A DNA stretch of 64,000 bases from an uncultured Gammaproteobacteria bacterium (GCA_964452165.1 CAYVKP010000001.1:1715-65714); one strand, 5' to 3'; counted from the stretch's first letter, positions 5,944 through 27,811 are shown. A program made the numbers and translations. Notes: a model not told the origin generated them from the sequence alone.

Positions 5944-7347
5944 TTAGAACGTGAGTCCAAGTTGGGTTTTGTCTTGATCCGAATTGCCTTCTGTCTCCTC
6001 ATCCCATATAGCAACTTTTCCGTATTCGCCGTCAAATCCGGGAACTATTTTTATGTTACGGGCGCGGACTTTTCCAATACCTTGCGCCACCTTGTCTCCG
6101 GCAACGGCTCTAATCTCTGATAGATCTACGCGGAAAAGAACTTCGTGCTCTGACCCAAAGTGGTTTACGAGTCTATCAAAAACGGTCAAGACTGTTGCTG
6201 TTGCGACTCCGGAATTAAGGCTTTCTGATAAGACCTCTAGTAGTGGGACGAGCGAGACATAGGGAGGCTTTTTATTCTCAGGATCTTTTTGCCATACTAC
6301 GCCAAATTTATCCTGTTCAGGCCTGAAATTATTTGCTGGGGTATTTGCCAACACCTCTACTCTATTCATAACCCCAACGGTCAGAGGTTTGTGACAAACA
6401 GGGCAGATTGTACCGCGACTTTTATCTTCATCTGGTGAATAAGAAACTTTACAAAGTCTGTGCCCTGTATAGTGATATTTACCTTCTTCAGGATAAAATT
6501 CGATAGTGTAGGCTATCTCAAACACACGCTCGCGACCCCTAACAAACGAGTTGAGAATGTTATCGTACGTAATGTCTTCCATTTTGATTTTTGGATTTTG
6601 ATTTTTGGATTTTAAAACGGTTGCTTCTCGTCCCATTTTTTCAAGCGAGTGAGCATCAGAAAAAGAGACTATCGAACGAGTCGCAAGCTCATTTATTCGC
6701 CAGTTCATTGCAGGATCGCTTGATAAACCCGTTTCGATTGCAAAAATATACTTTGTGTACTCCCCAAAACAATCTTGGATCCTGTCGTATCCGGAGCGAG
6801 AACCGTAAAGTGAGAACCAGGGGGTCCAGATGTGACAAGGAATAATCGCGATCTTTTTATCTATACCGTAAACTATTTCTGCCAGTTGCTTTGAGGTTAG
6901 TCCCAGTATTGGCCGCCCGTCAGATGAAAGATTTATCCCTCGCCTTGTGAGCTCCGCGTTAATTTTTGCCGCAGTCTCAAAGTTGGGAGAGAAAATTAAG
7001 TTGTGAATCCTGTGCGGGACCCCATTTTCAGTATAAATTGCCGCAACTTCTGTTGATAACATAAAATACGGCCCTAAAAAATCTTTCTGTGAAAGCTCCC
7101 CAAGTTGCGCTTCTGCATTTTTTTTATCTTTGAGGCGATAAATCCCAGAATTAATCTCCTCCAGCTGAGATTGTGCCTCACGAAACCAAATTGGGTGAGT
7201 AAAATCGGCGACTGATAGGATATTTATCCCCTTCTTGCGTCCCCAAATATACATATTTGTAAGATTCATTTTTTGAGATACTGCGCGAGAAAATCTTGAA
7301 TGTATGTGGAGGTCTAAAACGAGTTCCATTTGGAACTCATTAAACAT
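5944..7347 (-). CDS. PHP-domain protein, endonuclease Q (EndoQ)-like
   Basis: N-terminal DLHIHSRFS PHP metal-binding motif and a C-terminal CPVCHK zinc-finger-like motif. Length and architecture resemble archaeal/CPR EndoQ family proteins. Confidence 0.55.
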   Translation of the reverse strand: MFNEFQMELVLDLHIHSRFSRAVSQKMNLTNMYIWGRKKGINILSVADFTHPIWFREAQSQLEEINSGIYRLKDKKNAEAQLGELSQKDFLGPYFMLSTEVAAIYTENGVPHRIHNLIFSPNFETAAKINAELTRRGINLSSDGRPILGLTSKQLAEIVYGIDKKIAIIPCHIWTPWFSLYGSRSGYDRIQDCFGEYTKYIFAIETGLSSDPAMNWRINELATRSIVSFSDAHSLEKMGREATVLKSKNQNPKIKMEDITYDNILNSFVRGRERVFEIAYTIEFYPEEGKYHYTGHRLCKVSYSPDEDKSRGTICPVCHKPLTVGVMNRVEVLANTPANNFRPEQDKFGVVWQKDPENKKPPYVSLVPLLEVLSESLNSGVATATVLTVFDRLVNHFGSEHEVLFRVDLSEIRAVAGDKVAQGIGKVRARNIKIVPGFDGEYGKVAIWDEETEGNSDQDKTQLGLTF

Positions 7348-7384
7348 GAAATGTTATTAAGTTTCAAGGTGTTATAATTGAGGG

Positions 7385-7666
7385 GTGCAAAGCGTATCTG
7401 ACGTTCTTAAAAAGTTTAACCCCATTGAAGATAAATATATTAGCCGTGAATTTCAATCTTATGGAATATATTTATCGGAAGAACTTAATGACTACAAGCA
7501 CAAATCTCTTTATATAAAGCTTGCAAAAACGGTTCACCGTTCTATACTTGATAAGGCCTTGTCATACTGCAAAGATGCAAGAACCGACACTCCCAACAAA
7601 GGCGCCCTCTTTATGTGGAAGATGAAACAATTGAAAGATGAGAACAAGCAAAAAACAAACAAGTAA
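7385..7666 (+). CDS. hypothetical protein (93 aa)
   Basis: ORF only. Its 3' end overlaps the next gene's 5' end in another frame. Confidence 0.3.
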   Translation: MQSVSDVLKKFNPIEDKYISREFQSYGIYLSEELNDYKHKSLYIKLAKTVHRSILDKALSYCKDARTDTPNKGALFMWKMKQLKDENKQKTNK

Positions 7667-7961
7667 AGCCTTTGATAAGGTATATAAATTACTTCGAACC
7701 GTTCCAAGGGGAAAAGTTACAACGTATGGCGCAATTGGCAAAAAATTGAACATGAGCCCGCGTGTCGTGGGCTTTGCGCTTCATGCCAATCCCGATTCTG
7801 ACAATAATCCTTGTCACAGAGTAGTAAACCGTGAAGGAAGACTTGCGCCCGGCTTTGCTTTTGGAGGAACTGGCGCACAAAAACAATTACTTGAACAAGA
7901 AAGAGTGGAATTTATTGACTCAAACCACGTAGATCTTCAGAAATACTTCTTTGGATTTTAA
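7638..7961 (+). CDS. MGMT-family DNA-binding domain protein (methylated-DNA-protein-cysteine methyltransferase C-terminal-like)
   Basis: HTH region plus the PCHRVV motif characteristic of the O6-alkylguanine alkyltransferase active site. Confidence 0.65.
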   Translation: MRTSKKQTSKAFDKVYKLLRTVPRGKVTTYGAIGKKLNMSPRVVGFALHANPDSDNNPCHRVVNREGRLAPGFAFGGTGAQKQLLEQERVEFIDSNHVDLQKYFFGF

Positions 7962-8271: not shown

Positions 8272-8736
8272 TTATCTTGTCTGAGGACACGAAAATTGCA
8301 GAGTTACATCAGTTGCTCGAAAATCTACCAACCGTGTCTCAACACTATAAATCATGTCGGGTGTCATAAAGTCTATCGTAGTATGTCCAGGCTCTCTTCT
8401 TTGACGCAAAATAAGACCATCAACCCCACTGTTATCATATATCTCACCTGGTGGATTAATTGGAAAATGAGAGTTACCCACCTTTATGCCAGGGCCAGTT
8501 TGATCAAACGGAATAGTTTTATGTTCGGGCCTGAGAGTTTTGGGATCCTTACAATTGGCATTTACTCCTAACTCTAGTGGTCCAACTGTTTGTCCTTGGG
8601 AAAGTGAGCTAGAAATAGCTGGTCTAGTGGGAGCTTGTCTATTTTCAGAATTTGCAGATCCACGACAACCCATTAATACTGCTCCTAACGCGGCTGCCCC
8701 GAGCATTCTAACAGGCCACCTCATTCCCTCTAACAT
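8272..8736 (-). CDS. secreted/lipoprotein-like hypothetical protein
   Basis: N-terminal hydrophobic signal with Cys (AVLMGCRGS). No domain recognised. Confidence 0.4.
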   Translation of the reverse strand: MLEGMRWPVRMLGAAALGAVLMGCRGSANSENRQAPTRPAISSSLSQGQTVGPLELGVNANCKDPKTLRPEHKTIPFDQTGPGIKVGNSHFPINPPGEIYDNSGVDGLILRQRREPGHTTIDFMTPDMIYSVETRLVDFRATDVTLQFSCPQTR

Positions 8737-8763: not shown

Positions 8764-10548
8764 TTATTCTGCATTTTTCTTTGACTTCTCATGGTGCTGG
8801 GAGGAAAACATTTTTTCTATTTCGGCTAGAGATGTTGCGTCTTCCGGCTTTCTATCATCGCGAAATTTTTCGAGTCTGGGGAAACGCAAGGCATATCCCG
8901 GCACATCTACGTCAAAGGCTGAACCGCTCTTTGAAGCTTTCATAATTCGGCCCGCGGTATGAATTGGTGAACGGGTTATTTCATCCGCCTTTATCTCAAC
9001 GACGATTTCAGGCTCAATCCAAACATCAGGTTCAAGGTTTTTATCGACTAAATAGAGCGGGGGTTTCTCTTTCGCTTTCAATTTATTACCTCTGACAGCC
9101 AGGGTCTTCCATTCTTCATCGGTTAATCCTGTCCCAACACGCGCAATAGTTACATAATGGTCAGACTTTTTATCATAGATCCCGATTAAAAAACCGCCAA
9201 TTCCAAAAGCAGTTCTTTTTCCGCGCCCGTAATAATAACCCATTACAAGACAATCTACTGTGTCATCAAGCGAGGCCGAATAAGAACGCTTAAACTTTAT
9301 CCAATTCCAACCGCGAGCTCCGGCCTGATACGTTCCGTCTAGTTTTTTAGCCAAAATTCCTTCGAGTCCTCGCGATATTGCATCGTCGAAAAAATTCTCA
9401 ATTTTTTTGGGGTCTCCAAAAACCTGTTCTTCCGAAATTAAAACCGTATTACCTTCTTTTATTATTGACGCGAGCAATCTGCGTCTTTCCACGTAGGCTT
9501 TGCCTATCATATTATTGCCATCGAGGAAGAGCAAATCAAACGTAATAAGTTTTAACGGATATTTTTTTGCCATCTCTTCAATCCCATATTTTCTTTTCCT
9601 CTGTGTAGTTATTTGAAATGGCAGATATTCGCCGGTGTCGGGATCATAAGCGATTGCTTCGCCTTCAAATATAGCTTCTTTTACTTTGATTTGACTTTTT
9701 ATTCCCGCAACAACATCGGGGTACATAAAGGTTACGTCTTCAAGATTGCGGGTTATTAGCTTAATTTCTTGACCACGAACATGAGCCTGAAGCCTAAATC
9801 CGTCAAACTTTGGTTCGACTGCACACTCACCAATCTTGTTAATAATCTCCTCACCGCTCGATAATCTTTCTGCCCGCGCCATCAATACCGGAGTAAACGG
9901 AACAGGAGTAGCCTCTGCCAGTCCTTTAACGCCCCTTTCTTTTACGGTTTTTGCAATATATCCAAGGTCCGGACGAATGTTGAATACCGGTTCGATTTCT
10001 TTTCTGTGAGTTTTAGTCCCATCAATCATCCATGAAAGAGAATCAAGAACAGTCATATCTGAAAATCCAAGACGAAGCTTGGCAACCGGGATTCTTGAAA
10101 CGAATCTTGCCGACAACGGATCGAGGCTTTTTAGAAGATCTGAGATTATTGTCATTTTCTTCTCAACCGAGCCGGCCCCGCCGGTCTGTGCTACTTTTTT
10201 AAGAGCATCGAATACCTCCGTGACAGTAACATTTGAAGCTTTTTTTTGTTTTACAGCTAACTTTTCAGCCAAAACTCCCAAGTCTCCAATTTTTTTGTAT
10301 TCGGCCAAAATTTCCTTATCATCAATTGAGTAGGCAAAAGCAAAGGCCTTAAGCATTTGTTTCTCGGCAATTCCAAACTCAAGCGGTTCGTAAAGCGGGA
10401 CTACTCTACCCTGCATCAGGTAAACAATTTTGTCGATATCCTGGGGGTCGGTCTCACGGAATAAATCCGCAAGAAGCTCAATCATAGTATTGCGGGAAGT
10501 TGTGCCCTCAAGCTTTTCTAAATGTTTTGATAGATCCGAAAATTTCAT
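8764..10548 (-). CDS. lig: ATP-dependent DNA ligase (archaeal/eukaryotic Lig1-like)
   Basis: Motif I EPKFDGFRLQAH (KxDGxR adenylation lysine). 594 aa, the typical length of ATP-dependent ligases with DNA-binding, adenylation and OB domains. Confidence 0.85.
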   Translation of the reverse strand: MKFSDLSKHLEKLEGTTSRNTMIELLADLFRETDPQDIDKIVYLMQGRVVPLYEPLEFGIAEKQMLKAFAFAYSIDDKEILAEYKKIGDLGVLAEKLAVKQKKASNVTVTEVFDALKKVAQTGGAGSVEKKMTIISDLLKSLDPLSARFVSRIPVAKLRLGFSDMTVLDSLSWMIDGTKTHRKEIEPVFNIRPDLGYIAKTVKERGVKGLAEATPVPFTPVLMARAERLSSGEEIINKIGECAVEPKFDGFRLQAHVRGQEIKLITRNLEDVTFMYPDVVAGIKSQIKVKEAIFEGEAIAYDPDTGEYLPFQITTQRKRKYGIEEMAKKYPLKLITFDLLFLDGNNMIGKAYVERRRLLASIIKEGNTVLISEEQVFGDPKKIENFFDDAISRGLEGILAKKLDGTYQAGARGWNWIKFKRSYSASLDDTVDCLVMGYYYGRGKRTAFGIGGFLIGIYDKKSDHYVTIARVGTGLTDEEWKTLAVRGNKLKAKEKPPLYLVDKNLEPDVWIEPEIVVEIKADEITRSPIHTAGRIMKASKSGSAFDVDVPGYALRFPRLEKFRDDRKPEDATSLAEIEKMFSSQHHEKSKKNAE

Positions 10549-11586
10549 TTAGCTTTTATCCAGGATGTATTTTACACCTTTTGTCACGCCTTGCTTCTTG
10601 AGCAAGCCCTTTTTGACTAAATCCTGAACCTCGCGAAGAACCGTATCCTCGGAGACCATTGGAAAAAGCGAGTTATATGCGTTGTTTTCTATGTATCCGT
10701 TTGCTTGAATATATTCGATGATCTTAAGTTGTCGCTCTGACAACATTACCGGACCGCCTAATTTCTTTTTTAAATTGTTGTCAATTGAAATATTCTCAAT
10801 CCTATCTTTAATCTTGGATAGTTCTACCGCAAGACACTCCGTAAAATACTCGAGCCACTCTGTCTGGTCACCGTTTTTCTTTTCAACTGACTGCAATGCT
10901 TCATAATATCTTTCAGGATCACGATCAAAATGTTCTTCGATTGAGAAAAACTGACGAATGTCATAACCTAGCTTGTATAAGACGAGCATTGAAAGCGCGC
11001 GCCCTACCCTACCATTTCCATCTAAAAACGGGTGGATTCTGACAAATTCATAGTGAACTATTCCTCCTTTTAAAACCGGGTGAATCTCTGGCTCTTCCTG
11101 AATAAATATCGCAAGTTCTTTCATCTGCCAAGGGACTTCAACGGATTTTGGAGGCTTGAAAGCAACGTCTCCGGTTATTGAATTTCGGATTACGACTTCT
11201 TTCTGGCGATATTTTCCCGACTCCTCGTCCGGCAAAACGTTTTTGACAACTATTTTATGAAGTTCACGTATTGTATCCTCATCTATCTGTTGCCCTGTGT
11301 GGCGATCTATATAATCAATGACTCTGCGATAATTTATAACTTCCTGAACGTCTCGCTCTCTTGCAACGATTCGCTCTCCATCTAGTATTTTTTGGACTTG
11401 AGTTAAAGATAATTCATTTCCTTCAATGTGAGTTCCAAAATGCGTTGTCCTGACCAAAGCTTCATCTTGAAATTTCTTTTCCCAGTAAGGCAGGAGGGGG
11501 GCGTTTTCTATAATTTCTTTTGCCGCTTCAATTGCTCCAATATTCTTGAGAATCTTATTATCGATAGAAAAAGTTGGGGTATACAT
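10549..11586 (-). CDS. Fic family protein (AMPylation-competent motif) with C-terminal winged-helix domain
   Basis: Canonical Fic motif HPFLDGNGRVGR, an N-terminal Fic_N-like inhibitory-helix region (THIEGN), and a C-terminal wHTH. Stop codon abuts the start of the ligase gene. Confidence 0.85.
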   Translation of the reverse strand: MYTPTFSIDNKILKNIGAIEAAKEIIENAPLLPYWEKKFQDEALVRTTHFGTHIEGNELSLTQVQKILDGERIVARERDVQEVINYRRVIDYIDRHTGQQIDEDTIRELHKIVVKNVLPDEESGKYRQKEVVIRNSITGDVAFKPPKSVEVPWQMKELAIFIQEEPEIHPVLKGGIVHYEFVRIHPFLDGNGRVGRALSMLVLYKLGYDIRQFFSIEEHFDRDPERYYEALQSVEKKNGDQTEWLEYFTECLAVELSKIKDRIENISIDNNLKKKLGGPVMLSERQLKIIEYIQANGYIENNAYNSLFPMVSEDTVLREVQDLVKKGLLKKQGVTKGVKYILDKS

Positions 11587-11634
11587 TAAGATCTTAAAAC
11601 TCAGATATTGGATGTCAGATTTGAATTATGACAT

Positions 11635-12018
11635 TTGAGTTCTGAGTTATTAAATAGTATTATATCAGCTATGGCAACCGAATCTGAGGGAAAGCTTGAT
11701 GAAGTAGACGTTGAGGTCCTCAGGGAAATTCTTGATCTGGCAAAGACGGGAATTAAGGCAAAAAAAGAGAGCAAAGAGGAAAGACTTCATGTTGAGGTGG
11801 TAAGACAAATGCTGACTTTGGCAACTTCCGGTTTTGGACTCGTTGCGGCACTCGCCTGGAATAGCCTAATTCAAGAAATTGTTAGTAGCTACGTTAAAAG
11901 AAATCTTCCCGGGGGTAATGCAGGCGTCATATCACTTATTATCTATGCTGTTGTCGTCACAGCAATAGCGGTCTTTGTGACATTTCAGCTCTCAAAACTT
12001 CTCAAGAAGCTTTCGTAA
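11635..12018 (+). CDS. hypothetical small membrane protein
   Basis: 127-aa ORF with C-terminal TM helices. Stop overlaps the recF start. Confidence 0.4.
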   Translation: MSSELLNSIISAMATESEGKLDEVDVEVLREILDLAKTGIKAKKESKEERLHVEVVRQMLTLATSGFGLVAALAWNSLIQEIVSSYVKRNLPGGNAGVISLIIYAVVVTAIAVFVTFQLSKLLKKLS

Positions 12019-13067
12019 TGATTTTAAAAAAGCTAAAGCTAACAAACTTTAGAAATCATAAGGCTGCCCAATTTAATCTCGCACTTACTACTGTCATTAT
12101 TGGCAAAAATACGGCGGGCAAAACCAACATCCTTGAGTCGATTTATATCTTGTCCGCAGGAAAGTCATTTCGCGCTCAGAAGGATCTTGACACAATCCGT
12201 GAGGAAACAGATTTTTGCAATATTGAAGCTCAAGTTGAAGACGAAGATGAAAAGATAGATCTTAAAGTAATTTTCTCTCTGCAAAAAGGCTACTTATCAA
12301 AAAGGTTTTTGGTAAATAACGTACCCCGCCGTCAACACGATTTTGCATCAAATTTTGTCTCCGTTCTTTTTACTCCAAAAGATATTGAAATAATGACTGA
12401 TTCACCTGGAGTAAGACGCCGTTATATTGATTCTGTTTTGTATCAGTCTAACAAAAACTATCGAATTGCCCTTTCCACTTACGAACGGGCGCTAAAGCAC
12501 AGAAACAGAATGCTTTATGACATTCGAGAGGGCAAAAAACAATATGCCCGCCATGATTTTGAATACTTTGAAAACATATTAATCGAGCAGGGAAATATTT
12601 TGACCCAAAAGCGCGAGGAATTTGTAGATTTTGTGAATGAGTCAAACAAGGATATCTTCAAGTTCACTCTTTTTTATGACAAAAGCCTTATGTCTACGGA
12701 GCGCCTCTTCAAATATCATTTTGAAGAACAGGCGGCGGGTGTCACTTTGGTTGGCCCGCAAAGAGATGATTTTGCTTTTTACTTTGAAGGGACACAAAAA
12801 CCCGTTCGCGAATTTGGGTCAAGAGGAGAAGAACGCTTGACAATTTTACAACTTAAAACGCTTGAGATAGAGTTTCTTCGAACGAAAACCGGAAAGAATC
12901 CCGTACTCTTACTCGATGATATTTTCTCAGAGCTTGATGATGCAAATATCTTTAAGGTTTTTGAACTTTTGCCTAATCAGCAGACAATTTTGACAACAAC
13001 TCACCACGAATTCGTCCCCAAAAAGATTTTGAACCGAACAGACGTTGAAATTATCGAATTAAAGTAG
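12018..13067 (+). CDS. recF: DNA replication and repair protein RecF
   Basis: N-terminal LKLTNFRNH and Walker A GKNTAGKTNILESI. 349 aa with SMC-like ABC ATPase architecture. Confidence 0.85.
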   Translation: MILKKLKLTNFRNHKAAQFNLALTTVIIGKNTAGKTNILESIYILSAGKSFRAQKDLDTIREETDFCNIEAQVEDEDEKIDLKVIFSLQKGYLSKRFLVNNVPRRQHDFASNFVSVLFTPKDIEIMTDSPGVRRRYIDSVLYQSNKNYRIALSTYERALKHRNRMLYDIREGKKQYARHDFEYFENILIEQGNILTQKREEFVDFVNESNKDIFKFTLFYDKSLMSTERLFKYHFEEQAAGVTLVGPQRDDFAFYFEGTQKPVREFGSRGEERLTILQLKTLEIEFLRTKTGKNPVLLLDDIFSELDDANIFKVFELLPNQQTILTTTHHEFVPKKILNRTDVEIIELK

Positions 13068-19410: not shown

Positions 19411-20835
19411 TCACCTGCGGACAACCGTCGCGACCGCGGCACCGGAGATGAGGAGAACCACCATGACACCAGCAACGATGGTCCAGATCGAACTCGAGGA
19501 GGAGCTCATGGCAAGACCTGCGTCACCGGTAGCCGGTGGCTTGATCGAAGGCGTCAGCGGCGCGTCGGCGGTGTCCACGGGGCGTGGAGCCGGTTCGGAG
19601 CCGTTGTAGTAGCCGTTGATCGCGGGCGTGTCAGCGTCACCAGCGTTCGTCGTGGTGCGACCATCGAACGTCGAGGACGTAGGAATGGGCACGTTAGATG
19701 CCGAAGGTGACTGTGCGAAGGCATCGTTCGTCGAGAAGACGTTGCTACTGACGAGCGGAGCCGGACCCTGACCCGTTGCGTAGTCCTTGACGGTGACCGT
19801 GTCTGTCGCCTGAGCGTTCACAGGATCGCTAGACGCCGTGTCGGCCGTCGTGTTGGACTGGTTGACCACGTAGACAGCGATGCAGAAGCCGGAGGGGTTC
19901 TCAGGCGCAGCGCATGCGGTCTTGGAGGCGACAGCGACGATCAGCAGACACGTAGTGCCAGGTGACGCCGTAGCGCAGCCGTTGTTGGTCAGGTTGTTCG
20001 TGTTCTGGCCGGCCAGGTTCGGCAGGCTCAGGTAGTTCGCCAGGCCAGGGTTCGAAGCGCCGATGACGACGGCGTCGAGCTGGCTGAAGTTAAGCAGACC
20101 CTGTTGTACCACGGGAAGTACGCCGAGAATTCGGCCGTCGATCAGGACCGTCAAGTGAGCGTTCGGGATCGACACAGCGTCGCGGATGTCGAGAACAGCG
20201 CCGTCAGAGCCAGCGGCCGGGACGAGTGCGTTCGTGACGTCGTTGACAGAGTTGCCCCTATTCGTGGCCTTCTCGTCACCGGTGGGGCTCGTCTGGTATG
20301 CAGCGACCGTGATGGATGCCGGCAGGCCAGTAAGCCTTAACGTGGCGGTAAGGACGATGTTCGGCACGCCGAGGTAGTTCGGCAGGCTCAGGTTGTTACC
20401 CAGCGGGTAGTTGGACTCCTGGACGTTGGTCTTGCCGAGAGTCGTTCCGGGGGCCATGTTGGTGCCCGAGTTGGCCAGGTTGGCCAGGTTCAGTTGGCTA
20501 ACGACTACGTAGTCGATGCCACTGCTGGAGAACGTAACGACCTTTTCGGCGAGGAGGATACCTCCAGGATCCGATCCGGTGTAGACGTCGTGCAACGAGT
20601 TGTTCGTCTGGACGGTCGACGCCGCAATACCTGGGGTCGAGTCAGACGTTGCCGCGGCAGTAGGAGCCGGCGAAGTCCAGAAGGCCGTCAAGCCAAACAG
20701 AACTGCTACCGTTACTGCCAGGGCGAAGAGCTTTGCCAGCGACACGCGCGGAGGCGGGTCCTGATAGTTGGTTGTGTGTCTGGTTTTCACCGGACACTCC
20801 TTTCCTTGCAAGGAAATGCCTGCATTCTGCAGCAT
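19411..20835 (-). CDS. cell-surface protein with signal peptide, internal repeats and a sortase-like C-terminal sorting signal
   Basis: N-terminal TM/signal (LFALAVTVAVLFGLTAFW). Internal repeats LSLPNYLGVPNIV and LSLPNLAGQNTNN in Ala/Thr/Ser/Asn-rich sequence. The C-terminus is KPPATGDAG, then a Ser stretch, a hydrophobic helix and RR, i.e. an LPXTG-type tripartite architecture with P in place of L. Confidence 0.55.
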   Translation of the reverse strand: MLQNAGISLQGKECPVKTRHTTNYQDPPPRVSLAKLFALAVTVAVLFGLTAFWTSPAPTAAATSDSTPGIAASTVQTNNSLHDVYTGSDPGGILLAEKVVTFSSSGIDYVVVSQLNLANLANSGTNMAPGTTLGKTNVQESNYPLGNNLSLPNYLGVPNIVLTATLRLTGLPASITVAAYQTSPTGDEKATNRGNSVNDVTNALVPAAGSDGAVLDIRDAVSIPNAHLTVLIDGRILGVLPVVQQGLLNFSQLDAVVIGASNPGLANYLSLPNLAGQNTNNLTNNGCATASPGTTCLLIVAVASKTACAAPENPSGFCIAVYVVNQSNTTADTASSDPVNAQATDTVTVKDYATGQGPAPLVSSNVFSTNDAFAQSPSASNVPIPTSSTFDGRTTTNAGDADTPAINGYYNGSEPAPRPVDTADAPLTPSIKPPATGDAGLAMSSSSSSIWTIVAGVMVVLLISGAAVATVVRR

Positions 20836-20839
20836 GGGT

Positions 20840-22900
20840 TGTGAAAAGAACGTTCCTCCCTCGCACCTTGCGAGATAGATCTTAGCTCTAAGCTATCCAC
20901 TTTGTGTACGGGTGTCTTTCCGGCGTCTGTCCTCGATGCCTCCCTCGGATGAGATCACTGCTGAGAACATCAAGGGCCAGGCCTTTCAGACTTTCCCGAA
21001 CTTTCGAGATCATCCCCTTTCAGTACTGCCTCTACGGTCAGTACTCTATTTCCAAGAGCTTGCCGAAGCGGGCGGCGGATCACAAGGCTACGCGGGGTGT
21101 ACCCGTTTCAGACTCGCTCTGAGAAAGCATTGGAGGGACGCCCCTTTTCCCTACGGACCAATCCGGCACTTTGCCGAACTTAAAATGTGTTGGGACGTCC
21201 CCTGATGATTAGCAGGTCTTCGATTCAAGCGAACACGTGCCCTGCACGTAATGCGTACAAATCCGCTCGTTTTCCGTTCAGCCGAATGCGTTGACGCACG
21301 GTTGATCTTTGACCTGCTCGTGGGAGCTCACCTCATCAGGGTGGCTTCTGGTAGTGATGCACCTTGCATCTCCTTTCTATTGATAGTAATCATCTCCGAC
21401 CCGAGCACCGAGAGCAGACTTTCGTCGCTGGCTCGACAACCGGAGAGAATCCCCTTAGTGGGAGACGTCCCATTTTTACTTACCCCACAAATGCCCGTCG
21501 TAAAGACAGGTTCCTCCTTTCTGAACTAGGAGCTGGACGCGGGACGTCTCCGGCGGCAATGGGTTTAGACAGTCAATACGAACCCTCCTTTCAGGGTTAT
21601 TCAGATAAGGCTCCGGGGAGTGAGCCTGGATCTGGCTGGTGGGAGGTAGCAGCAATAGACAGGGGGACAGGACCCTGTACTCGGCGCTTACTGCTACCAG
21701 ATGGTTTGGGAGGAACCCTACCATCCTTTTCCCAAGAACGTGCAAGTCCGAGGATTTCTCCTTGGACTGGGAATGGCTATGGAGACCATGGAGCGATGGG
21801 TCCAGAGGGCCTCCTGGTTGTTAGGGCGGAGCTCTTATCCGTGTCAGTGCGTTGTAGACATTTGCACTTTCCATGGCACCCTTCCTCTTTCGAGAATGGC
21901 TGGAGATCCGGCCTCGTACGAGTGGTCGCCTCTTATGAGGACTGAGCAGCTGGCTGCAACCAGACTTTTATATCTCAGCAACGACCATAGGCTGTGCTGC
22001 CATTAGGGCGGAGAGCGTGACCGGGTCACTATGCAAACGCGTCTGTTAAGAAGCGTCCACTTCCGGTTTACCTCCACCATACTCGACTCCTCCCTTCGAG
22101 TCTTCCTAGATAAGGTCTCAGCACTAGACCTGGATCTGGCTGGCGGGGTACGGCAGCTGAAACACGAATGCGATCGTGACACCACTGCCTAAAGATGGGT
22201 TCCAAGCCATCCTTTCCCCGATGAAAAGTGCAGTCTCCTCACGATGAGAAGACGTAGTTTTCCAGGAGGTGAAGGTCTCTTCACTTGCGCAGGCCACCAC
22301 GCGAAGAGAGCTTGCACCACTAGCCTGGTGAGTGTCGTCAACCGCCATACCACAGATCGTGGTAGTCCAGCACAAGGCGGAGACAAGACAACTCCTGGAC
22401 TCATCGAGATAGCAAGATGAGCCTAATTTGCGTCATTCAAGTGGAAAGCCATTCCACAAGAAAGTTATTTTGAATAACGAACAACAATAAAATAAAACTA
22501 AAATTTGATTTTTGTAAAATCCTTAAAAAAGACTCCTTCTGGAGTGTGGGGTTGTGAATTCAGACAATAAACAAACTCGTAATTATTGCCTCAGCTCACA
22601 ACCGGACACAAGCGCTATGCAAATAAGCGCTGTCAAAAGAAGTTATGCGAACTGGTTGTTAAAGTGCAAAACTTTTTTGCCAGAACGCATGCATTTGCAT
22701 AAAGGCATTATGTTATGTAATGCGAGTATATCTCTAAGGGAATTGCTTTTCAATTGGGCATTTACTGTAGCCTGAGGGGGATTGGGCGCGGGAATAGGAT
22801 ATAGATGTTTGTCTTCTTGAAGAAGACGATGCAGTTTGACTGCTACATCAGGTCCTAAACCCGCGTCCGCACCGGTTGCGAATTTATTTGTTGTAGATCA
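20840..22900. ncRNA. candidate large structured noncoding region with an internally duplicated module (strand undetermined, possibly minus)
   Basis: No ORF longer than 193 aa in ~2 kb, and the ORFs present are scattered over frames. Two homologous ~150-nt modules start at 21603 and 22108 (shared agataagg...cctggatctggctgg...gatgg...ccatcctttcc). The hairpin ggctc/gagcc in copy 1 becomes ggtct/agacc in copy 2, with three compensatory pair changes. Also contains an 11-bp inverted repeat (21460-21471 / 21531-21541) and multiple GGGACGTCCC palindromes. Confidence 0.35.
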
Positions 22901-22904
22901 CCTC

Positions 22905-24398
22905 CTATCTTCTGGTAGGAACTTGTGTCGCAAGACACTGTCCTGTCGCGATGACGTAATAGTCGCAGTTAGTCGGCGGCTGAGGATTTCCGCTTGGCTT
23001 CTGCGGCTGGACAGGCTGTTGCTGGACCGAAGGACCCGAGTTGGCCTTGCCAACAATCTGGTACGTTGCGGTGTTGCTTACGAGCGGTGTGTTGCCGTCG
23101 TATAGCGTAATCCTAAGCGTATCAGTGCCAAGTGGCGGAGCAACATTGCCCGTCGATTGACAGCCTGTGCCGGCGTTCACGTATTTGCTGACTGGCCGAG
23201 TCGCCGGACTTCCGTCTTGGGGAGAGTCGGTAACAACTATCGTACCAGCCTGCGACACATTCCAGCAGAACTTACCACTCGTGTAGACCGTTATGACTGA
23301 TGGATCAGCCCAAACGCTCACAGTAGCGGCAGGTGGTGGAGGTGCCGGACGAGATGTCGGCGCGGGTGGTGGTGCCGCGGGCGCTTGGGGCGCAGGCGGA
23401 ACCTTGGTCGCTGTTGGCGGTGGCGCTTGAACCTGCTGAACTTGCGGAGCAGGCGTTGGCGGCGTGAACGACCCAATGTTGGGTGCTGGACCCGACTTTT
23501 TTTGAATCTCAACGGAAGTGGTGTCTACCGCGACTTTCACGTCGTCGACATATGCTACTGCAGCGATGCTGTAGATGCCAGGAATGACATTGTCGACGAT
23601 TGGAATCGTGGTGCAGGACTTTTCTTCCGAAGAATACCCATTCCACAACGGCGTTGGCTCCTCTCCTTCTCGGGAGAAAGTTGAAACTACTCTGTACCAG
23701 ATCTTCTTGTTGAGCTGGAAACAAAGAGTTGCGCGGTCTCCTTCGACGTAGACGTTCTTGCCGTCATTGAACCACACTTTTAGAGTGTAGCTGAACGGAG
23801 CAGGCGTTGATGTTGCCGTTGACGGTGCCGCCTTCACCTCAGGGTGATCGTAGTCATCCCTAAGTTGGGAGTGTAACCACCCCATCACAGGTGAAAAACG
23901 ACCCTTGGTGTCAATTATGTTCGCTGGAGAAATCTGTAGGCTGGTTTGCCATTTTTCACCAACGTTCTGCTGAACGAAGGTGATTTTTCCGTTCGCCACT
24001 CCGGTGACCAGCGCCACATGTCCCCAAGGCCACTCCTCGTTTTTCCCGAAAACGAGAATGTCTCCCGGAACAGGAGCAGTTGAAGAACCGTTTTCGTACA
24101 CGTTGGCGAAGTTAATGTTGTCCTTGTTTCCAAACATCTCAAATGCATTGAGACCCCAGTTGTAAGGACCCCATTCTCTCTCGCCCCAGTAACGCTGAAC
24201 GAATTCGACGCACTGCCACTCAATACCGTACTTTGACGAACGTCCGGAGTAGTAAAACGGGTCATCTCCGTTGGAGAAGATGTCCGTTTTGTCGTAGGTT
24301 CCAAGACGCTGTCCGAATGACGACGACGCCATAACGATACCTACGAAAATGAGGGGGCTCAATCCCAGAAGGACTGCAGCCCTGACTAACCTGATCAT
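22905..24398 (-). CDS. secreted CHAP-domain peptidoglycan hydrolase with Ig-like middle region, Pro-rich linker and Cys-containing C-terminal domain
   Basis: Signal peptide (MIRLVRAAVLLGLSPLIFVGIVMA). CHAP catalytic Cys context WQCVEFVQRYW and His GHVALV. A ~45-residue P/A/Q-rich linker and a C-terminal domain of ~130 aa with 4 Cys. GC-rich codon usage. Confidence 0.7.
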   Translation of the reverse strand: MIRLVRAAVLLGLSPLIFVGIVMASSSFGQRLGTYDKTDIFSNGDDPFYYSGRSSKYGIEWQCVEFVQRYWGEREWGPYNWGLNAFEMFGNKDNINFANVYENGSSTAPVPGDILVFGKNEEWPWGHVALVTGVANGKITFVQQNVGEKWQTSLQISPANIIDTKGRFSPVMGWLHSQLRDDYDHPEVKAAPSTATSTPAPFSYTLKVWFNDGKNVYVEGDRATLCFQLNKKIWYRVVSTFSREGEEPTPLWNGYSSEEKSCTTIPIVDNVIPGIYSIAAVAYVDDVKVAVDTTSVEIQKKSGPAPNIGSFTPPTPAPQVQQVQAPPPTATKVPPAPQAPAAPPPAPTSRPAPPPPAATVSVWADPSVITVYTSGKFCWNVSQAGTIVVTDSPQDGSPATRPVSKYVNAGTGCQSTGNVAPPLGTDTLRITLYDGNTPLVSNTATYQIVGKANSGPSVQQQPVQPQKPSGNPQPPTNCDYYVIATGQCLATQVPTRR

Positions 24399-25391: not shown

Positions 25392-25595
25392 CTACGTTTT
25401 ACCCCACGTTACGCGGTTCCATACCCTTTCATGTAGGTAATAAAAGACTAACTTCAAAATTCCTTCGGCGCCTCCAACTCCGATTGAAAGAAGTAATTTA
25501 CGCGTGAAGACGAAAACAACCGCTGCTGTAGTAAGTGAAGCAATAATTCTCCAAGTAATAGTTTTGGCAACGCTGCGGTGGCTCTCCTCCTTCAT
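25392..25595 (-). CDS. small membrane protein, DUF2061-like
   Basis: 67 aa with two TM segments and a C-terminal YYLHERVWN-type motif, from recalled family similarity. Overlaps the stop of the upstream ATPase gene by 1 nt. Confidence 0.4.
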   Translation of the reverse strand: MKEESHRSVAKTITWRIIASLTTAAVVFVFTRKLLLSIGVGGAEGILKLVFYYLHERVWNRVTWGKT

Positions 25596-27811
25596 TAAAA
25601 TTGAGCTTTCCTACCGTAGCGCTCTTTGGAGTAACGAATAATCGCATCACGGTTTTCATTCTTAACATTTGGAAGCGGCAAGGTGGTTGCAGGGAAAGGC
25701 GCTGAGGTCATTCCGTCAATTGAAAGCTTTAAAACTATTTCAAATTTGCCAAGGGATACTAGGTCATTTTCGGTGTAAATCTCCGCATATTCCTTTGTAA
25801 GTCGCTCCGCATCTTGTGCACCGACAACAAAAGACATAAGAGTTCCGACATTTCCATAAATTGCATATTGAATCTCCTCCTCAAGCTGATCCGAATATTG
25901 ATTTGCTAAAGTCAAAGACAAGCGATATTTTCGTGCTTCGGATAGAATTTTAATGAAAGAGCTGGTTGCAAAATTTTGGAACTCATCAACGTATAGGAAA
26001 AAGTCACGTCTACTCTCCTCTTTCTGAAAAGATCTATTCATTGCAGCAAGCTGAATTTGGGTGATAACCATTGCTCCAAGAAGTGCCGCGTTATCCTCTC
26101 CTAATTTTCCCTGTGATAAATTAAGAATCAAGATTTTTCCTTCGTCCATTATCTCCTGAAGATTAATTGAAGAAGTGGGGTGGCCAATAATGTTACGGAT
26201 CATTTTTGATGAGACAAATTGTCCTACCTTGTTTTGGATTGGAGAAACAGCCTCAGCCTTTAGCTTATCCGGCATCCTGGCAAACTCAGCTTCCCAGAAA
26301 TTCTTGAGAACCGGGTCTGATAGTTTTGCAACAATTCTTGCACGAAACGCATCGTCTGATAATATTCTCAACGCGTCAATTAGAGTACCCTCCTCAACGT
26401 CGAGAAGGGTCAAAATAACATTTCGCAAGATATATTCAAGGCGCGGACCCCAAGATTCTCCATAAATCTTGTGGAAGATCGAGACAATTCCCGATGAGAC
26501 CAAGTCTTTATGCTGAGAATTACGAACCTCCAAAACGTTTAGCGAGAACGGGCGCTCGGCATCAAAAGGCTCCAGATAAACTACGTCATTGAGTCGTCTC
26601 TTTGGAATGTAATCCATAATAATCTCCGATAAATCTCCGTGAGGGTCAATGATTCCAATTCCGCGGTCTTTGCGAATATCGTCAATTGCCATGTTGGCAA
26701 TTAAAGTGGATTTTCCGGCTCCGGTTTTTCCAATAACGTAAACGTGTTTTCTCCTGTCGGGCGTTTTTATTCCAAAAATTGTTTCGGCATTTTTGAATTC
26801 GGTTTTTGCAAAAAAGTTGATATCCTTCTTTTCTTCTTCGGTAATGGCAGTTATAACCGGAAGATCTTCGGGTGGTTCTCCAAGAAGAGTCTTACCCCAA
26901 GCAATATTCTTAACCCCGGCAAGCAAGAATCCTGTGGGGTGCCAAATGGTTGCGAGTTCCTGAGCATTTAATATCTGTGTGCGCTTTTCAAGATAATAGG
27001 TTGAACGGTTTTTAATCCTTTCAATAAAGTTTTTCTTGCGGATAAGCGGACGCTTCAACTCAAATTCATTTCCGTCACCGTGAGAGAATATTCCAAACGT
27101 TCCCGCAAGATTTCGCAGATATAATCTTGGATCTGTATTTTCCGTACCTACAACTAGACGAATAAGCGCTTTTCCTCCTTGAAATGAGGCTTTTTGCATG
27201 ATTAAAAGTTGTTGTGGATCGCGGGCGTATCTGGCCGTTTCGGTACTATGTGCTTCAACCCCGGCCGTAGCAGGAGAAGTATGGGAGTCTGTTCCTGCAA
27301 GTATCATTTGCCCTGCTCGTTTTACGGCCCTTGCCTGCCAATCAAAAGACGCTGAGGTTACAAGAATCTCAACAGCCATTTTAACGTCTGCCGGCTGTTT
27401 TGCTAAGAATCCGATCAGCGCGCCTAAGGTATCTATGTCTTCAAAGTCGGCATAAGTCTTTGTTGGAAGATAAAATTCGTTATCCAGAACCAATTGACCT
27501 ACTGATATGTGCTTGCTGTCAAAAACTTTTGGCATAGGGTCCTCGGTTTTTTCAATTGATGAGGTTGGAAAAGAGGCTGCAATTTGGCTTGCGACAAAAG
27601 TCTCCTGATCTTCATCGGCCGTTACATAGAAGTAGACCGTTTGATTGATTAGAAAAATTTCGAATGAATAATAATGTGTTTTCATCCATGATCTTTTCCA
27701 GAAGGGAACATATGCATGCGATAAGCAGGAAGCAAAAATCTGTGCTGCTGAAGCAATTGGAGTCTCATCGTCCTTAGGATTTCTGACTAAAAGATGTACC
27801 AGTTTTCTCAT
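25595..27811 (-). CDS. FtsK/HerA-superfamily ATPase, TraG/VirD4 (TraD)-like or DUF87 type IV-secretion-related protein
   Basis: Walker A GKTGAGKST, Walker B FLYVDEFQNF. 738 aa with a long N-terminal region lacking TM helices and a C-terminal TraG-D_C-like region. Confidence 0.55.
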   Translation of the reverse strand: MRKLVHLLVRNPKDDETPIASAAQIFASCLSHAYVPFWKRSWMKTHYYSFEIFLINQTVYFYVTADEDQETFVASQIAASFPTSSIEKTEDPMPKVFDSKHISVGQLVLDNEFYLPTKTYADFEDIDTLGALIGFLAKQPADVKMAVEILVTSASFDWQARAVKRAGQMILAGTDSHTSPATAGVEAHSTETARYARDPQQLLIMQKASFQGGKALIRLVVGTENTDPRLYLRNLAGTFGIFSHGDGNEFELKRPLIRKKNFIERIKNRSTYYLEKRTQILNAQELATIWHPTGFLLAGVKNIAWGKTLLGEPPEDLPVITAITEEEKKDINFFAKTEFKNAETIFGIKTPDRRKHVYVIGKTGAGKSTLIANMAIDDIRKDRGIGIIDPHGDLSEIIMDYIPKRRLNDVVYLEPFDAERPFSLNVLEVRNSQHKDLVSSGIVSIFHKIYGESWGPRLEYILRNVILTLLDVEEGTLIDALRILSDDAFRARIVAKLSDPVLKNFWEAEFARMPDKLKAEAVSPIQNKVGQFVSSKMIRNIIGHPTSSINLQEIMDEGKILILNLSQGKLGEDNAALLGAMVITQIQLAAMNRSFQKEESRRDFFLYVDEFQNFATSSFIKILSEARKYRLSLTLANQYSDQLEEEIQYAIYGNVGTLMSFVVGAQDAERLTKEYAEIYTENDLVSLGKFEIVLKLSIDGMTSAPFPATTLPLPNVKNENRDAIIRYSKERYGRKAQF

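Follow-up and report, generated by a model that had tools for sequence, protein, structure and literature searches.

The window analysed here (a stretch of 64,000 nucleotides, GCA_964452165.1 CAYVKP010000001.1:1715-65714, titled as DNA of an uncultured Gammaproteobacteria bacterium) carries a gene for a Fic protein directly followed, on the same strand, by a gene for an ATP-dependent DNA ligase. The adjacency, which a sequence-only reading of the window had picked out, is not confined to this genome, as the two genes are side by side, often among unrelated neighbours, in about 65 loci of ultra-small bacteria of the candidate phyla radiation (CPR), where at least four groups (Levy-, Roizman-, Gottesman- and Dojkabacteria) are represented. 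A selected functional link between Fic and the ligase is well supported by these gene comparisons. The explanation that we favour, and place slightly on the probable side of even, is an ancestral CPR Fic-ligase operon kept by selection, in which Fic would be a DNA-gated (de)AMPylase and the ligase its prime candidate client. As part of this joint explanation, the operon would be ancestral to a large CPR group comprising the Microgenomates (Levy-, Roizman- and Gottesmanbacteria) and the Dojkabacteria. Both protein families are known; what appears to be new is the conserved operon and a housekeeping-like Fic clade tied to a DNA ligase. Our literature search found no paper joining a Fic domain with an ATP-dependent DNA ligase and no description of the conserved operon.

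Conservation of the Fic-ligase pair

Close relatives of the Fic protein number in the thousands, and those with a name belong to Candidatus Levybacteria/Patescibacteria; the DNA of the window is therefore assigned to a Levybacteria genome (CPR, Microgenomates). Close relatives were scanned with one genome per GTDB species, giving 27 loci with a Fic 59-88% identical to that of the window, and in each of these the ligase follows Fic in the same orientation. The block PyrH-NnrD-RecF-DUF5654-Fic-Lig-Ogt-hyp93-EndoQ (Lig, the ligase; hyp93, a hypothetical protein of 93 residues) is common to the 27 loci, so at the depth of Levybacteria the adjacency could be plain inheritance. In Levybacteria clade 2, with Fic 60% identical, the pair is kept although recF is on the other strand.

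Outgroups were searched exhaustively over 50%-identity cluster representatives (242 clusters at E<=1e-30). Judged by the named clusters, Dojkabacteria are nearest (49%), followed by ANME-1 archaea and Elusimicrobia (42-43%). The Dojkabacteria arrangement is PolA-x-HTH-Fic-Lig, with the Levybacteria neighbours all absent. The P0244/P0420 lineage shows Fpg-RecF-Fic-Lig, with Fic and ligase genes overlapping by 4 nucleotides, and Gottesmanbacteria have Fic and ligase separated by a gene for a protein of 204 residues. On a 594-kb contig the order is mevalonate-pathway genes, a prenyltransferase, Fic-Lig and then a GT2 glycosyltransferase. The cluster of the L047 ligase, one of the Fic-linked ligases, is named Roizmanbacteria. 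Outside the CPR, the ligase is beside Fic in none of the three lineages with Fic relatives at 42-43% identity.

A scan centred on the ligase gave a wider sample. Nine divergent Fic-linked ligases were aligned and used as the query, 80 ligase loci were fetched from metagenomes, and the Fic profile was applied upstream of each. Of the 80, 35 carry a full-length Fic gene in the same orientation immediately upstream of the ligase, 27 are without Fic, and in 18 the sequence available upstream is too short. Only three of the 35 Fic-linked loci are close Levybacteria; in the others the identity to the window proteins is 42-54% for Fic and 38-57% for the ligase. In a neighbour-joining tree 34 of the 35 ligases belong to a low-GC clade (26-45%), and the remaining one (L105) groups with the Dojkabacteria ligase. 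In the low-GC clade no locus whose upstream sequence extends to 1.1 kb or more is without Fic. The ligases without Fic form separate clades at GC contents of 63-72%, 47-53% and 30-45%. The other neighbours are far less constant: RecF, NnrD, DUF5654 and EndoQ are each kept in 7-8 of the 35 loci (~20%), and DUF5654 with recF, which stand beside Fic in all Levybacteria loci, do so in only about 7 of the 35. In at least 11 of these loci, with upstream sequence of 3.7 kb or more, the Fic-ligase pair is the sole likeness to the window. The pair is thus of one orientation and retained in all assessable loci of the clade while its other neighbours differ, as in a conserved operon.

Signs of selection

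In four Levybacteria genomes the ligase at the same locus (L005:8737-10482, L008, L009:3134-4870 and L010) is only 48-49% identical to that of the window. The other proteins of these genomes are as close as in sister genomes (Fic 85-86%, RecF 74-76%, PyrH 73-76%). The four ligases group with those of clade-2 Levybacteria, nearer to the high-GC Fic-less clade. The ligase gene has therefore been displaced in situ, judging from the tree and the identities, with the arrangement preserved. The two proteins also follow a common phylogeny, as the distance matrices of Fic and ligase are correlated over the 61 pairs compared (Mantel r = 0.71, or 0.87 minus the displaced ligases; p about 0.001).

Fic is the best-conserved protein of the neighbourhood, ahead of the ligase, RecF and PyrH. 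In the near group the identities to the window are 85-88% for Fic, 73-80% for the ligase, 70-81% for RecF and 73-76% for PyrH, and in the far group 60%, 43-45%, 39-42% and 58-62%, respectively. On these comparisons the Fic gene is vertically inherited and housekeeping-like. A mobile or phage origin was considered and rejected: relatives on viral contigs are at most 38% identical and none has a ligase. For 80 generic Fic loci of viral contigs (24-38% identity), which served as the negative control, no ATP-dependent ligase was found within 5 kb (0/80).

The setting of the non-CPR Fic relatives is very different and defence-island-like. At L033:4637-7032 and L037:4861-7032 (Elusimicrobia and one further non-CPR lineage) Fic is present as tandem gene pairs, accompanied by ParE/ribbon-helix-helix and PIN toxin-antitoxin genes or by an MmeI-type methyltransferase and a PLD-SNF2 helicase. 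In a CPR-like relative (L039:6001-10149) the gene after a 41%-identical Fic encodes a PP2C-like protein, a NAD-dependent LigA gene comes next in convergent orientation, and UvrD and FtsK are upstream; the nearness of Fic to this other type of ligase may be a coincidence.

Architecture of the Fic protein

The Fic protein matches PF02661 with an E-value of 1.9e-18 (67.5 bits, cut-off 24). The sequence-only reading had described a complete catalytic motif, and this is borne out by HPFLDGNGRVGR at residues 185-196. The motif, in the form HP[FY]x[DE]GNGRxxR, is kept in 60 of the 61 Fic proteins linked to a ligase, the exception being a Dojkabacteria protein with DLNGR. With HxFx(D/E)GNGRxxR and a fold matching FICD, SoFic and CbFic2, the protein has the features of AMP-transferase-competent members of the superfamily.

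In class II Fic proteins, as classified by Engel et al., the inhibitory helix is N-terminal to the Fic core in the same chain and carries (S/T)xxxE(G/N). The inhibitory-helix-like THIEGN proposed earlier is present at residues 52-57, and E55-G56-N57 align with the IE(N/G) segment (IENN) of PDB 4RGL, which makes E55 the putative inhibitory glutamate (Einh). The textbook motif is not literally matched, as the position four residues before the glutamate is Gly and Thr is found at three residues before. Among the ligase-linked proteins G-T-H-[ILVM]-E-G-N is present in 55 of 61 and E-G-N in all 61. The AlphaFold2 (AF2) model, built from a 49-sequence alignment, has a predicted local distance difference test score (pLDDT) of 80.5 and a predicted template modelling score of 0.72. 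Its confidence drops below 50 (lowest, pLDDT 41-44) over residues 44-57 (window 11416-11454), which is the conserved GTHIEGN segment, and the rest is well modelled. Because of this drop the inhibitory helix is not confirmed structurally; the low confidence could reflect a mobile regulated element or merely the shallow alignment.

The C-terminal part is modelled as a winged helix-turn-helix (wHTH) of DeoR type, a putative DNA-binding domain with three helices (residues 284-296, 301-307 and 313-325) and a beta-hairpin (strands 329-332 and 339-342). It aligns with the wHTH of 7XUX and 8CIL, and the PF08220 HTH_DeoR domain is among the precomputed annotations of many Fic orthologues. The winged helix after the Fic core places the protein in the SoFic/CbFic2/CccR-like Fic-wHTH subfamily. 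By sequence, the nearest solved structures are 4RGL, 7XUX, 8UQU, FICD, CbFic2 (8CIL) and SoFic, and Foldseek gives full-length matches (346-378 columns) to 4RGL, 7XUX (CccR), SoFic 3EQX and CbFic2 8CIL.

Taken together, the sequence features point to a class II, SoFic/CbFic2-like Fic with Einh in cis, a C-terminal winged helix and an intact catalytic motif. The sequence-only reading would have been refuted by a Fic of the Doc/HipA-like toxin families whose antitoxin lies elsewhere; with Einh in cis and a C-terminal wHTH, the protein is neither a Doc nor a class I FicT. A class I FicT/VbhT module was ruled out, as the upstream gene is a divergent one for a DUF5654 membrane protein and the inhibitory motif is in cis, and a Doc toxin (HxFx(D/N)(A/G)NKR) was ruled out by the catalytic motif, which reads GNGR and not NKR. 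The protein scores 67 bits against the SoFic equivalog NCBIfam NF046030, far under the cut-off of 550, and the more permissive PADLOC SoFic hidden Markov model gives 184 bits over residues 39-334.

The ligase

The ligase matches DNA_ligase_A_N (1e-37), _M (3e-51) and _C (2e-19), all three above the Pfam cut-offs, and NCBIfam TIGR00574 dnl1 with 409 bits (cut-off 217.8). Motif I contains the predicted adenylated lysine, K247, and its K, D and G (K247-x-D-G) are invariant across the nine divergent Fic-linked ligases in the alignment. By its domains and motif I KxDG the protein is assigned as a three-domain ATP-dependent DNA ligase. A LigD or non-homologous end joining (NHEJ) system was ruled out, as every NHEJ/LigD model is below its cut-off and there are no Pol or PE domains; no Ku domain was seen in the neighbourhood tables of the examined Fic-ligase loci. 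A second, NAD-dependent ligase (LigA) was looked for within the window and none was found. When residues specific to the Fic-linked ligases were sought, only three columns differed, and none was common to type-A and type-B except a trivial L/I.

The Fic-ligase junction

In the window the junction reads ...AGC TAA ATG AAA..., with both genes in the same frame, a spacer of 0 nucleotides and no overlap, so the Fic stop abuts the ligase start just as first described. Abutment alone is unremarkable and within chance for a compact genome, as the same 12 kb contains several other neighbouring genes that abut or overlap (DUF5654/recF, recF/nnrD, hyp93/ogt and 17009-18112/18109-19140). Over the 61 pairs the spacer is <=0 nucleotides in 5, 1-50 in 16, 51-300 in 12, 301-700 in 24 (mostly Levybacteria clade 1) and >700 in 4, and it ranges from -4 (an ATGA overlap) to about 1900 nucleotides. 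The functional link put forward by the sequence-only reading is thus backed by comparative genomics, the adjacency being neither unique to one genome nor formed by a Fic of the Doc or class I type; the strict translational abutment is the part that is not conserved.

An extra gene, on the same strand and tightly packed, stands between Fic and the ligase in ~20 of the 27 close Levybacteria loci; the window has none. Relative to the window, this insertion slot is at 10548/10549, and it is hypervariable (L001-L029, L048, L052, L082, L123 and others). Its inserts include a family of 164-188 residues without a Pfam match (8 loci), one of 178-187 residues (3), four-helix proteins of the 23S-rRNA-IVP/bAvd-like kind (4), receiver domains (3) and singletons, the longest of 345 residues. 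A conserved third gene between Fic and the ligase was therefore rejected: with at least six unrelated families and singletons, the slot is variable and holds no fixed component. Because inserts are frequent and come from unrelated families, direct abutment is not the conserved character. Outside Levybacteria clade 1 tight junctions dominate, so the TAA-ATG of the window is probably close to the tight coupling of the ancestor.

Six divergent loci outside Levybacteria encode, in a Fic-ligase spacer of ~180-215 nucleotides, a conserved protein of 61-68 residues, apparently with two transmembrane helices. Its position recalls the AS1 antitoxin of E. coli Sofic; a sequence relationship was not seen.

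Fic and the ligase, which are co-directional, are probably co-transcribed. The promoter/terminator scan, weakly informative in this respect, found no terminator-like site on the minus strand between them. Two promoter-like hexamer pairs just 5' of Fic are only suggestive, as the region has 14 promoter-like sites against 8.2±3.1 expected from shuffled sequence, which is not clearly above expectation. An open reading frame for 154 residues (hyp154; 8272-8736, minus strand), 27 nucleotides 3' of the ligase, has a lipoprotein-like N-terminus (…LMGC…). It was rejected as a third operon member, since none of the related loci has a homologue and Pfam, NCBIfam and PADLOC give no match; it is an insertion specific to this genome at the operon's 3' end.

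Proposed role and alternative explanations

By analogy with CbFic2 and FICD, Fic would bind DNA through its winged helix and, when bound, reversibly and in a DNA-dependent manner AMPylate a protein active at the same DNA lesions. The co-translated ligase would be the prime candidate client, and ligation could therefore be tuned to DNA damage or to ATP status. AMPylation of the ligase by Fic is at this point pure inference. The more specific proposal, that a housekeeping, DNA-bound class II Fic acts as a dedicated regulator of the ATP-dependent ligase by reversible AMPylation across Microgenomates and Dojkabacteria, is put forward tentatively, and we think it rather doubtful. If true, both a bacterial Fic with a conserved endogenous client in DNA repair and a DNA ligase controlled by a partner AMP-transferase would be without known precedent. 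Fic-wHTH proteins have mostly been studied as toxins, effectors and defence genes, and to our knowledge the clients of most bacterial Fic enzymes, especially of the common class II Fic-wHTH proteins, are not known. The Fic clade described here behaves as a core gene of genome-reduced CPR bacteria, locked to one neighbour despite context shuffling and ligase replacement. The pairing supplies a concrete candidate substrate or partner, which turns the question of endogenous Fic-wHTH targets into a two-protein experiment. A regulatory layer would be added to DNA ligation in a poorly understood branch of uncultured bacteria.

Several observations weigh against such a role, and part of them would be expected if the two genes had come together a single time in a CPR ancestor and inertia had kept them side by side, in genomes that are small and seldom rearranged; the Fic client would then be unrelated to the ligase. 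Microgenomates hold synteny among functionally unrelated genes (PyrH-RecF-NnrD), as the block shared across Levybacteria illustrates, so part of the Fic-ligase conservation is inheritance; abutting and overlapping genes are also common in the window. In about 40 of the 61 pairs there are more than 50 nucleotides or an inserted unrelated small gene between Fic and the ligase. Insertions are thus tolerated, and tight translational coupling is dispensable. The sister lineage L042, with the Dojkabacteria-like context PolA-NUDIX-Fic, has a Fic without an adjacent ligase, and in the other CPR-like relative (L039) Fic is accompanied instead by a PP2C-like gene and by a NAD-dependent ligase gene in convergent orientation. 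No ligase residue appears to be common to both Fic-linked types and missing from the Fic-less ligases. To these are added the low modelling confidence of the inhibitory-helix region of Fic and the chemistry of Fic enzymes, which is known on Ser, Thr and Tyr hydroxyls and not on the Lys-AMP of a ligase. Inertia alone is nevertheless unlikely in our view, since the pair is kept in all assessable loci of the clade against ~20% for any other neighbour, persists in wholly different contexts (Dojkabacteria and the 594-kb contig), and came through the in-place swap to a 48%-identical ligase with its arrangement intact. A little less probable again is a Fic-wHTH that serves mainly as a DNA-binding (auto)regulator of the operon in the manner of CccR, with the ligase as the regulated gene and auto-AMPylation as the sensor. 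The conserved C-terminal DeoR-type wHTH, the promoter-proximal position of Fic, the deposition of 3EQX as a 'Fic domain containing transcriptional regulator' and the precedent of CccR (PMC9755527) all speak for it. No conserved operator or palindrome was found upstream of Fic in 26 Levybacteria loci (120 nucleotides each); these regions could not be aligned and had no palindrome in common, so autoregulation is neither supported nor opposed by them. What stands against regulation by binding is the strict conservation of the catalytic motif and Einh, which argues for selection on catalysis beyond DNA binding alone.

The PADLOC match could also be taken to mean abortive infection of the SoFic type, in which Fic is a latent toxin freed on phage attack, the variable downstream genes are AS1-like antitoxins, and the ligase is a bystander or a repair back-up. 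Non-CPR relatives (42-43%) in toxin-antitoxin, restriction-modification or defence contexts, often as tandem Fic genes, are in line with this, as are the small antitoxin gene downstream of E. coli Sofic (PMC12249575) and the hypervariability of the slot 3' of the CPR Fic. We consider it improbable. Fic stays at one chromosomal site among housekeeping genes, no related species that was recovered lacks it, and it is better conserved than RecF and PyrH; defence genes behave in the opposite way. Moreover, 21 of the 61 pairs leave no room for a small downstream gene, no close Fic relatives are found on viral or proviral contigs, and the NCBIfam SoFic equivalog score is far too low. Least probable by a wide distance from even chances is a role in which Fic strips AMP from abortively adenylated 5'-DNA ends, like aprataxin, or resets the ligase-AMP adduct. 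What speaks for it is circumstantial: the strict pairing with an enzyme whose chemistry centres on AMP transfer, the DNA-binding-type domain in Fic, and the conserved Einh, the driver of de-AMPylation in FICD and EfFic (PMC10628234). Against it, the literature searched reports no Fic acting on AMP linked to nucleic acid or lysine. Nor do we know of any Fic enzyme with such activity. Neither the operator search nor the search for ligase signatures discriminated among these explanations.

Neighbouring genes and other features of the window

The features of the locus are collected in Table 1. The gene recF is divergent from Fic, as had been stated; it is not adjacent, the DUF5654 gene being placed between them. 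Further neighbours are an NnrD-like kinase and PyrH (Pfam/NCBIfam).

Table 1. Features of the Fic-ligase locus, with positions in the window unless a locus is named.
Feature	Position	Strand	Basis
Fic gene, 345 residues	10549..11586	-	open reading frame; Pfam PF02661
ATP-dependent DNA ligase gene, 594 residues, three domains (DNA-binding, nucleotidyltransferase, OB)	8764..10548	-	Pfam DNA_ligase_A_N/M/C; TIGR00574
Fic/ligase junction: stop TAA 10551-10549, then start ATG 10548-10546	10546..10551	-	sequence read
Fic catalytic motif, H185 to residue 196 (HPFLDGNGRVGR)	10999..11034	-	sequence
Inhibitory-helix signature G51-T-H-I-E55-G-N57, putative Einh E55	11416..11436	-	alignment
C-terminal wHTH of Fic, residues 284-342, DeoR-like, putative DNA-binding	10561..10737	-	AF2; Pfam on orthologues
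Ligase motif I, E245-P-K247-F-D-G-F-R, adenylated lysine K247	9793..9816	-	sequence
Two promoter-like hexamer pairs just 5' of Fic (48-nucleotide divergent intergenic region and 5' end of DUF5654)	11591..11653	-	9/12 matches each
DUF5654 gene (membrane protein), divergent from Fic	11635..12018	+	Pfam/NCBIfam
recF, divergent from Fic	12018..13067	+	Pfam/NCBIfam
EndoQ-like PHP protein, downstream of ligase	5944-7347	-	Pfam/NCBIfam
hyp93, 93-residue hypothetical protein, downstream of ligase	7385-7666	+	open reading frame
Minimal Ogt/MGMT domain, downstream of ligase	7638-7961	+	Pfam/NCBIfam
61-68-residue spacer protein, six other loci	L049:4819-5004, L051:2664-2849, L085:4805-4999, L094:2754-2939, L098:3711-3917, L120:4794-4982		

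The region 5944-7961, 3' of the ligase, is a DNA-repair cluster with the EndoQ-like PHP protein, the conserved hyp93 and the Ogt domain. The EndoQ-like protein scores 159 bits with TIGR00375, under the cut-off of 327 bits, and its orthologues match Pfam MJ0043_C. The Ogt protein is a stand-alone MGMT/Ogt C-terminal domain of 107 residues with the PCHRV cysteine, and its start overlaps the hyp93 reading frame by 29 nucleotides.

At the left edge of the window the 5' end of a 23S rRNA gene, truncated by the edge, occupies 1-218 on the minus strand, and tRNA-Ala(TGC) stands upstream of this gene at 514-587; the rRNA operon therefore continues beyond the left end. A GC-rich island at 19411-24398 (50-57% GC against ~40% elsewhere in the window) contains an open reading frame for 474 residues without a Pfam match and a CHAP-domain protein of 497 residues. 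Its stretch of ~2 kb at 20836-22904 has a single reading frame, for 193 residues, and no Rfam match. The island is followed by a VirD4/TraG-like coupling ATPase at 25595-27811.

Many of the CPR metagenome-assembled genome records with these loci (L001, L002, L010, L012, L013 and others) are likewise titled 'uncultured Gammaproteobacteria bacterium', and a Fic orthologue from a soil metagenome (P0126) is annotated as 'Dot/Icm type IV secretion system effector CoxFIC1'. Both the titles and the CoxFIC1 label look like mislabelling or over-transferred annotation.

Comparison with known systems

The ligase of the window is like archaeal and eukaryotic Lig1-like and bacterial LigB/LigC-type enzymes in having the DNA-binding, nucleotidyltransferase and OB domains and KxDG. 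It is unlike the known families of three-domain ligases in its Fic partner, none such having been found in the literature search. The class I FicT/VbhT toxins reportedly AMPylate GyrB and ParE, as Harms et al. are said to have found in 2015, so that bacterial Fic proteins can target proteins of DNA metabolism. The inhibitory helix of this class is carried by a separate antitoxin, whose gene lies upstream. The GyrB/ParE precedent invoked in the sequence-only reading does not carry over directly, being drawn from another class than the window Fic, which differs from FicT/VbhT in the putative inhibitory helix in cis, the absence of a small upstream partner, the wHTH and its core-gene behaviour.

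The best sequence matches of the window Fic are the Dde_2494 Fic (4RGL; 3.5e-22) and CccR (7XUX; 5.8e-21), which are also ranked 1-2 by Foldseek. They differ in being only ~22% identical, and a ligase pairing is reported for neither. CccR of Yersinia pseudotuberculosis combines a Fic domain with DNA binding and is a transcription factor and a toxin secreted by the type VI secretion system (PMC9755527). SoFic (Shewanella SO_4266, 3EQX/3ZEC; E. coli Sofic, 9VJC) is similar in architecture and fold and belongs to the auto-inhibited AMP transferases of class II. Its genes serve in defence, are patchily distributed and have a downstream antitoxin of 47 residues (PMC12249575), whereas the Fic of the window and its CPR relatives are vertically inherited, highly conserved and coupled to a ligase.

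CbFic2 of Coxiella burnetii (8CIL) shares with the window Fic the class II organization with an N-terminal inhibitory helix (putative in the window protein), HPFxDGNGRxxR and the C-terminal DeoR-like wHTH, with a full-length fold match (Foldseek E 5e-12) and a phmmer E-value of 1.7e-16. It differs in the low identity (~20%), a DUF4172 N-domain and TSAIEG in place of GTHIEGN. When its wHTH binds DNA, the enzyme is stimulated and goes over from AMPylation to de-AMPylation; CbFic2 has been studied as an effector that is secreted and acts on histone H3 of the host, and a ligase neighbour is not described (PMC10628234). The window Fic, in contrast, is a core gene on the chromosome of CPR bacteria that are free-living or episymbiotic, and its pairing with the ligase would extend the DNA-induced switch between AMPylation and de-AMPylation of CbFic2 to an endogenous DNA-repair setting.

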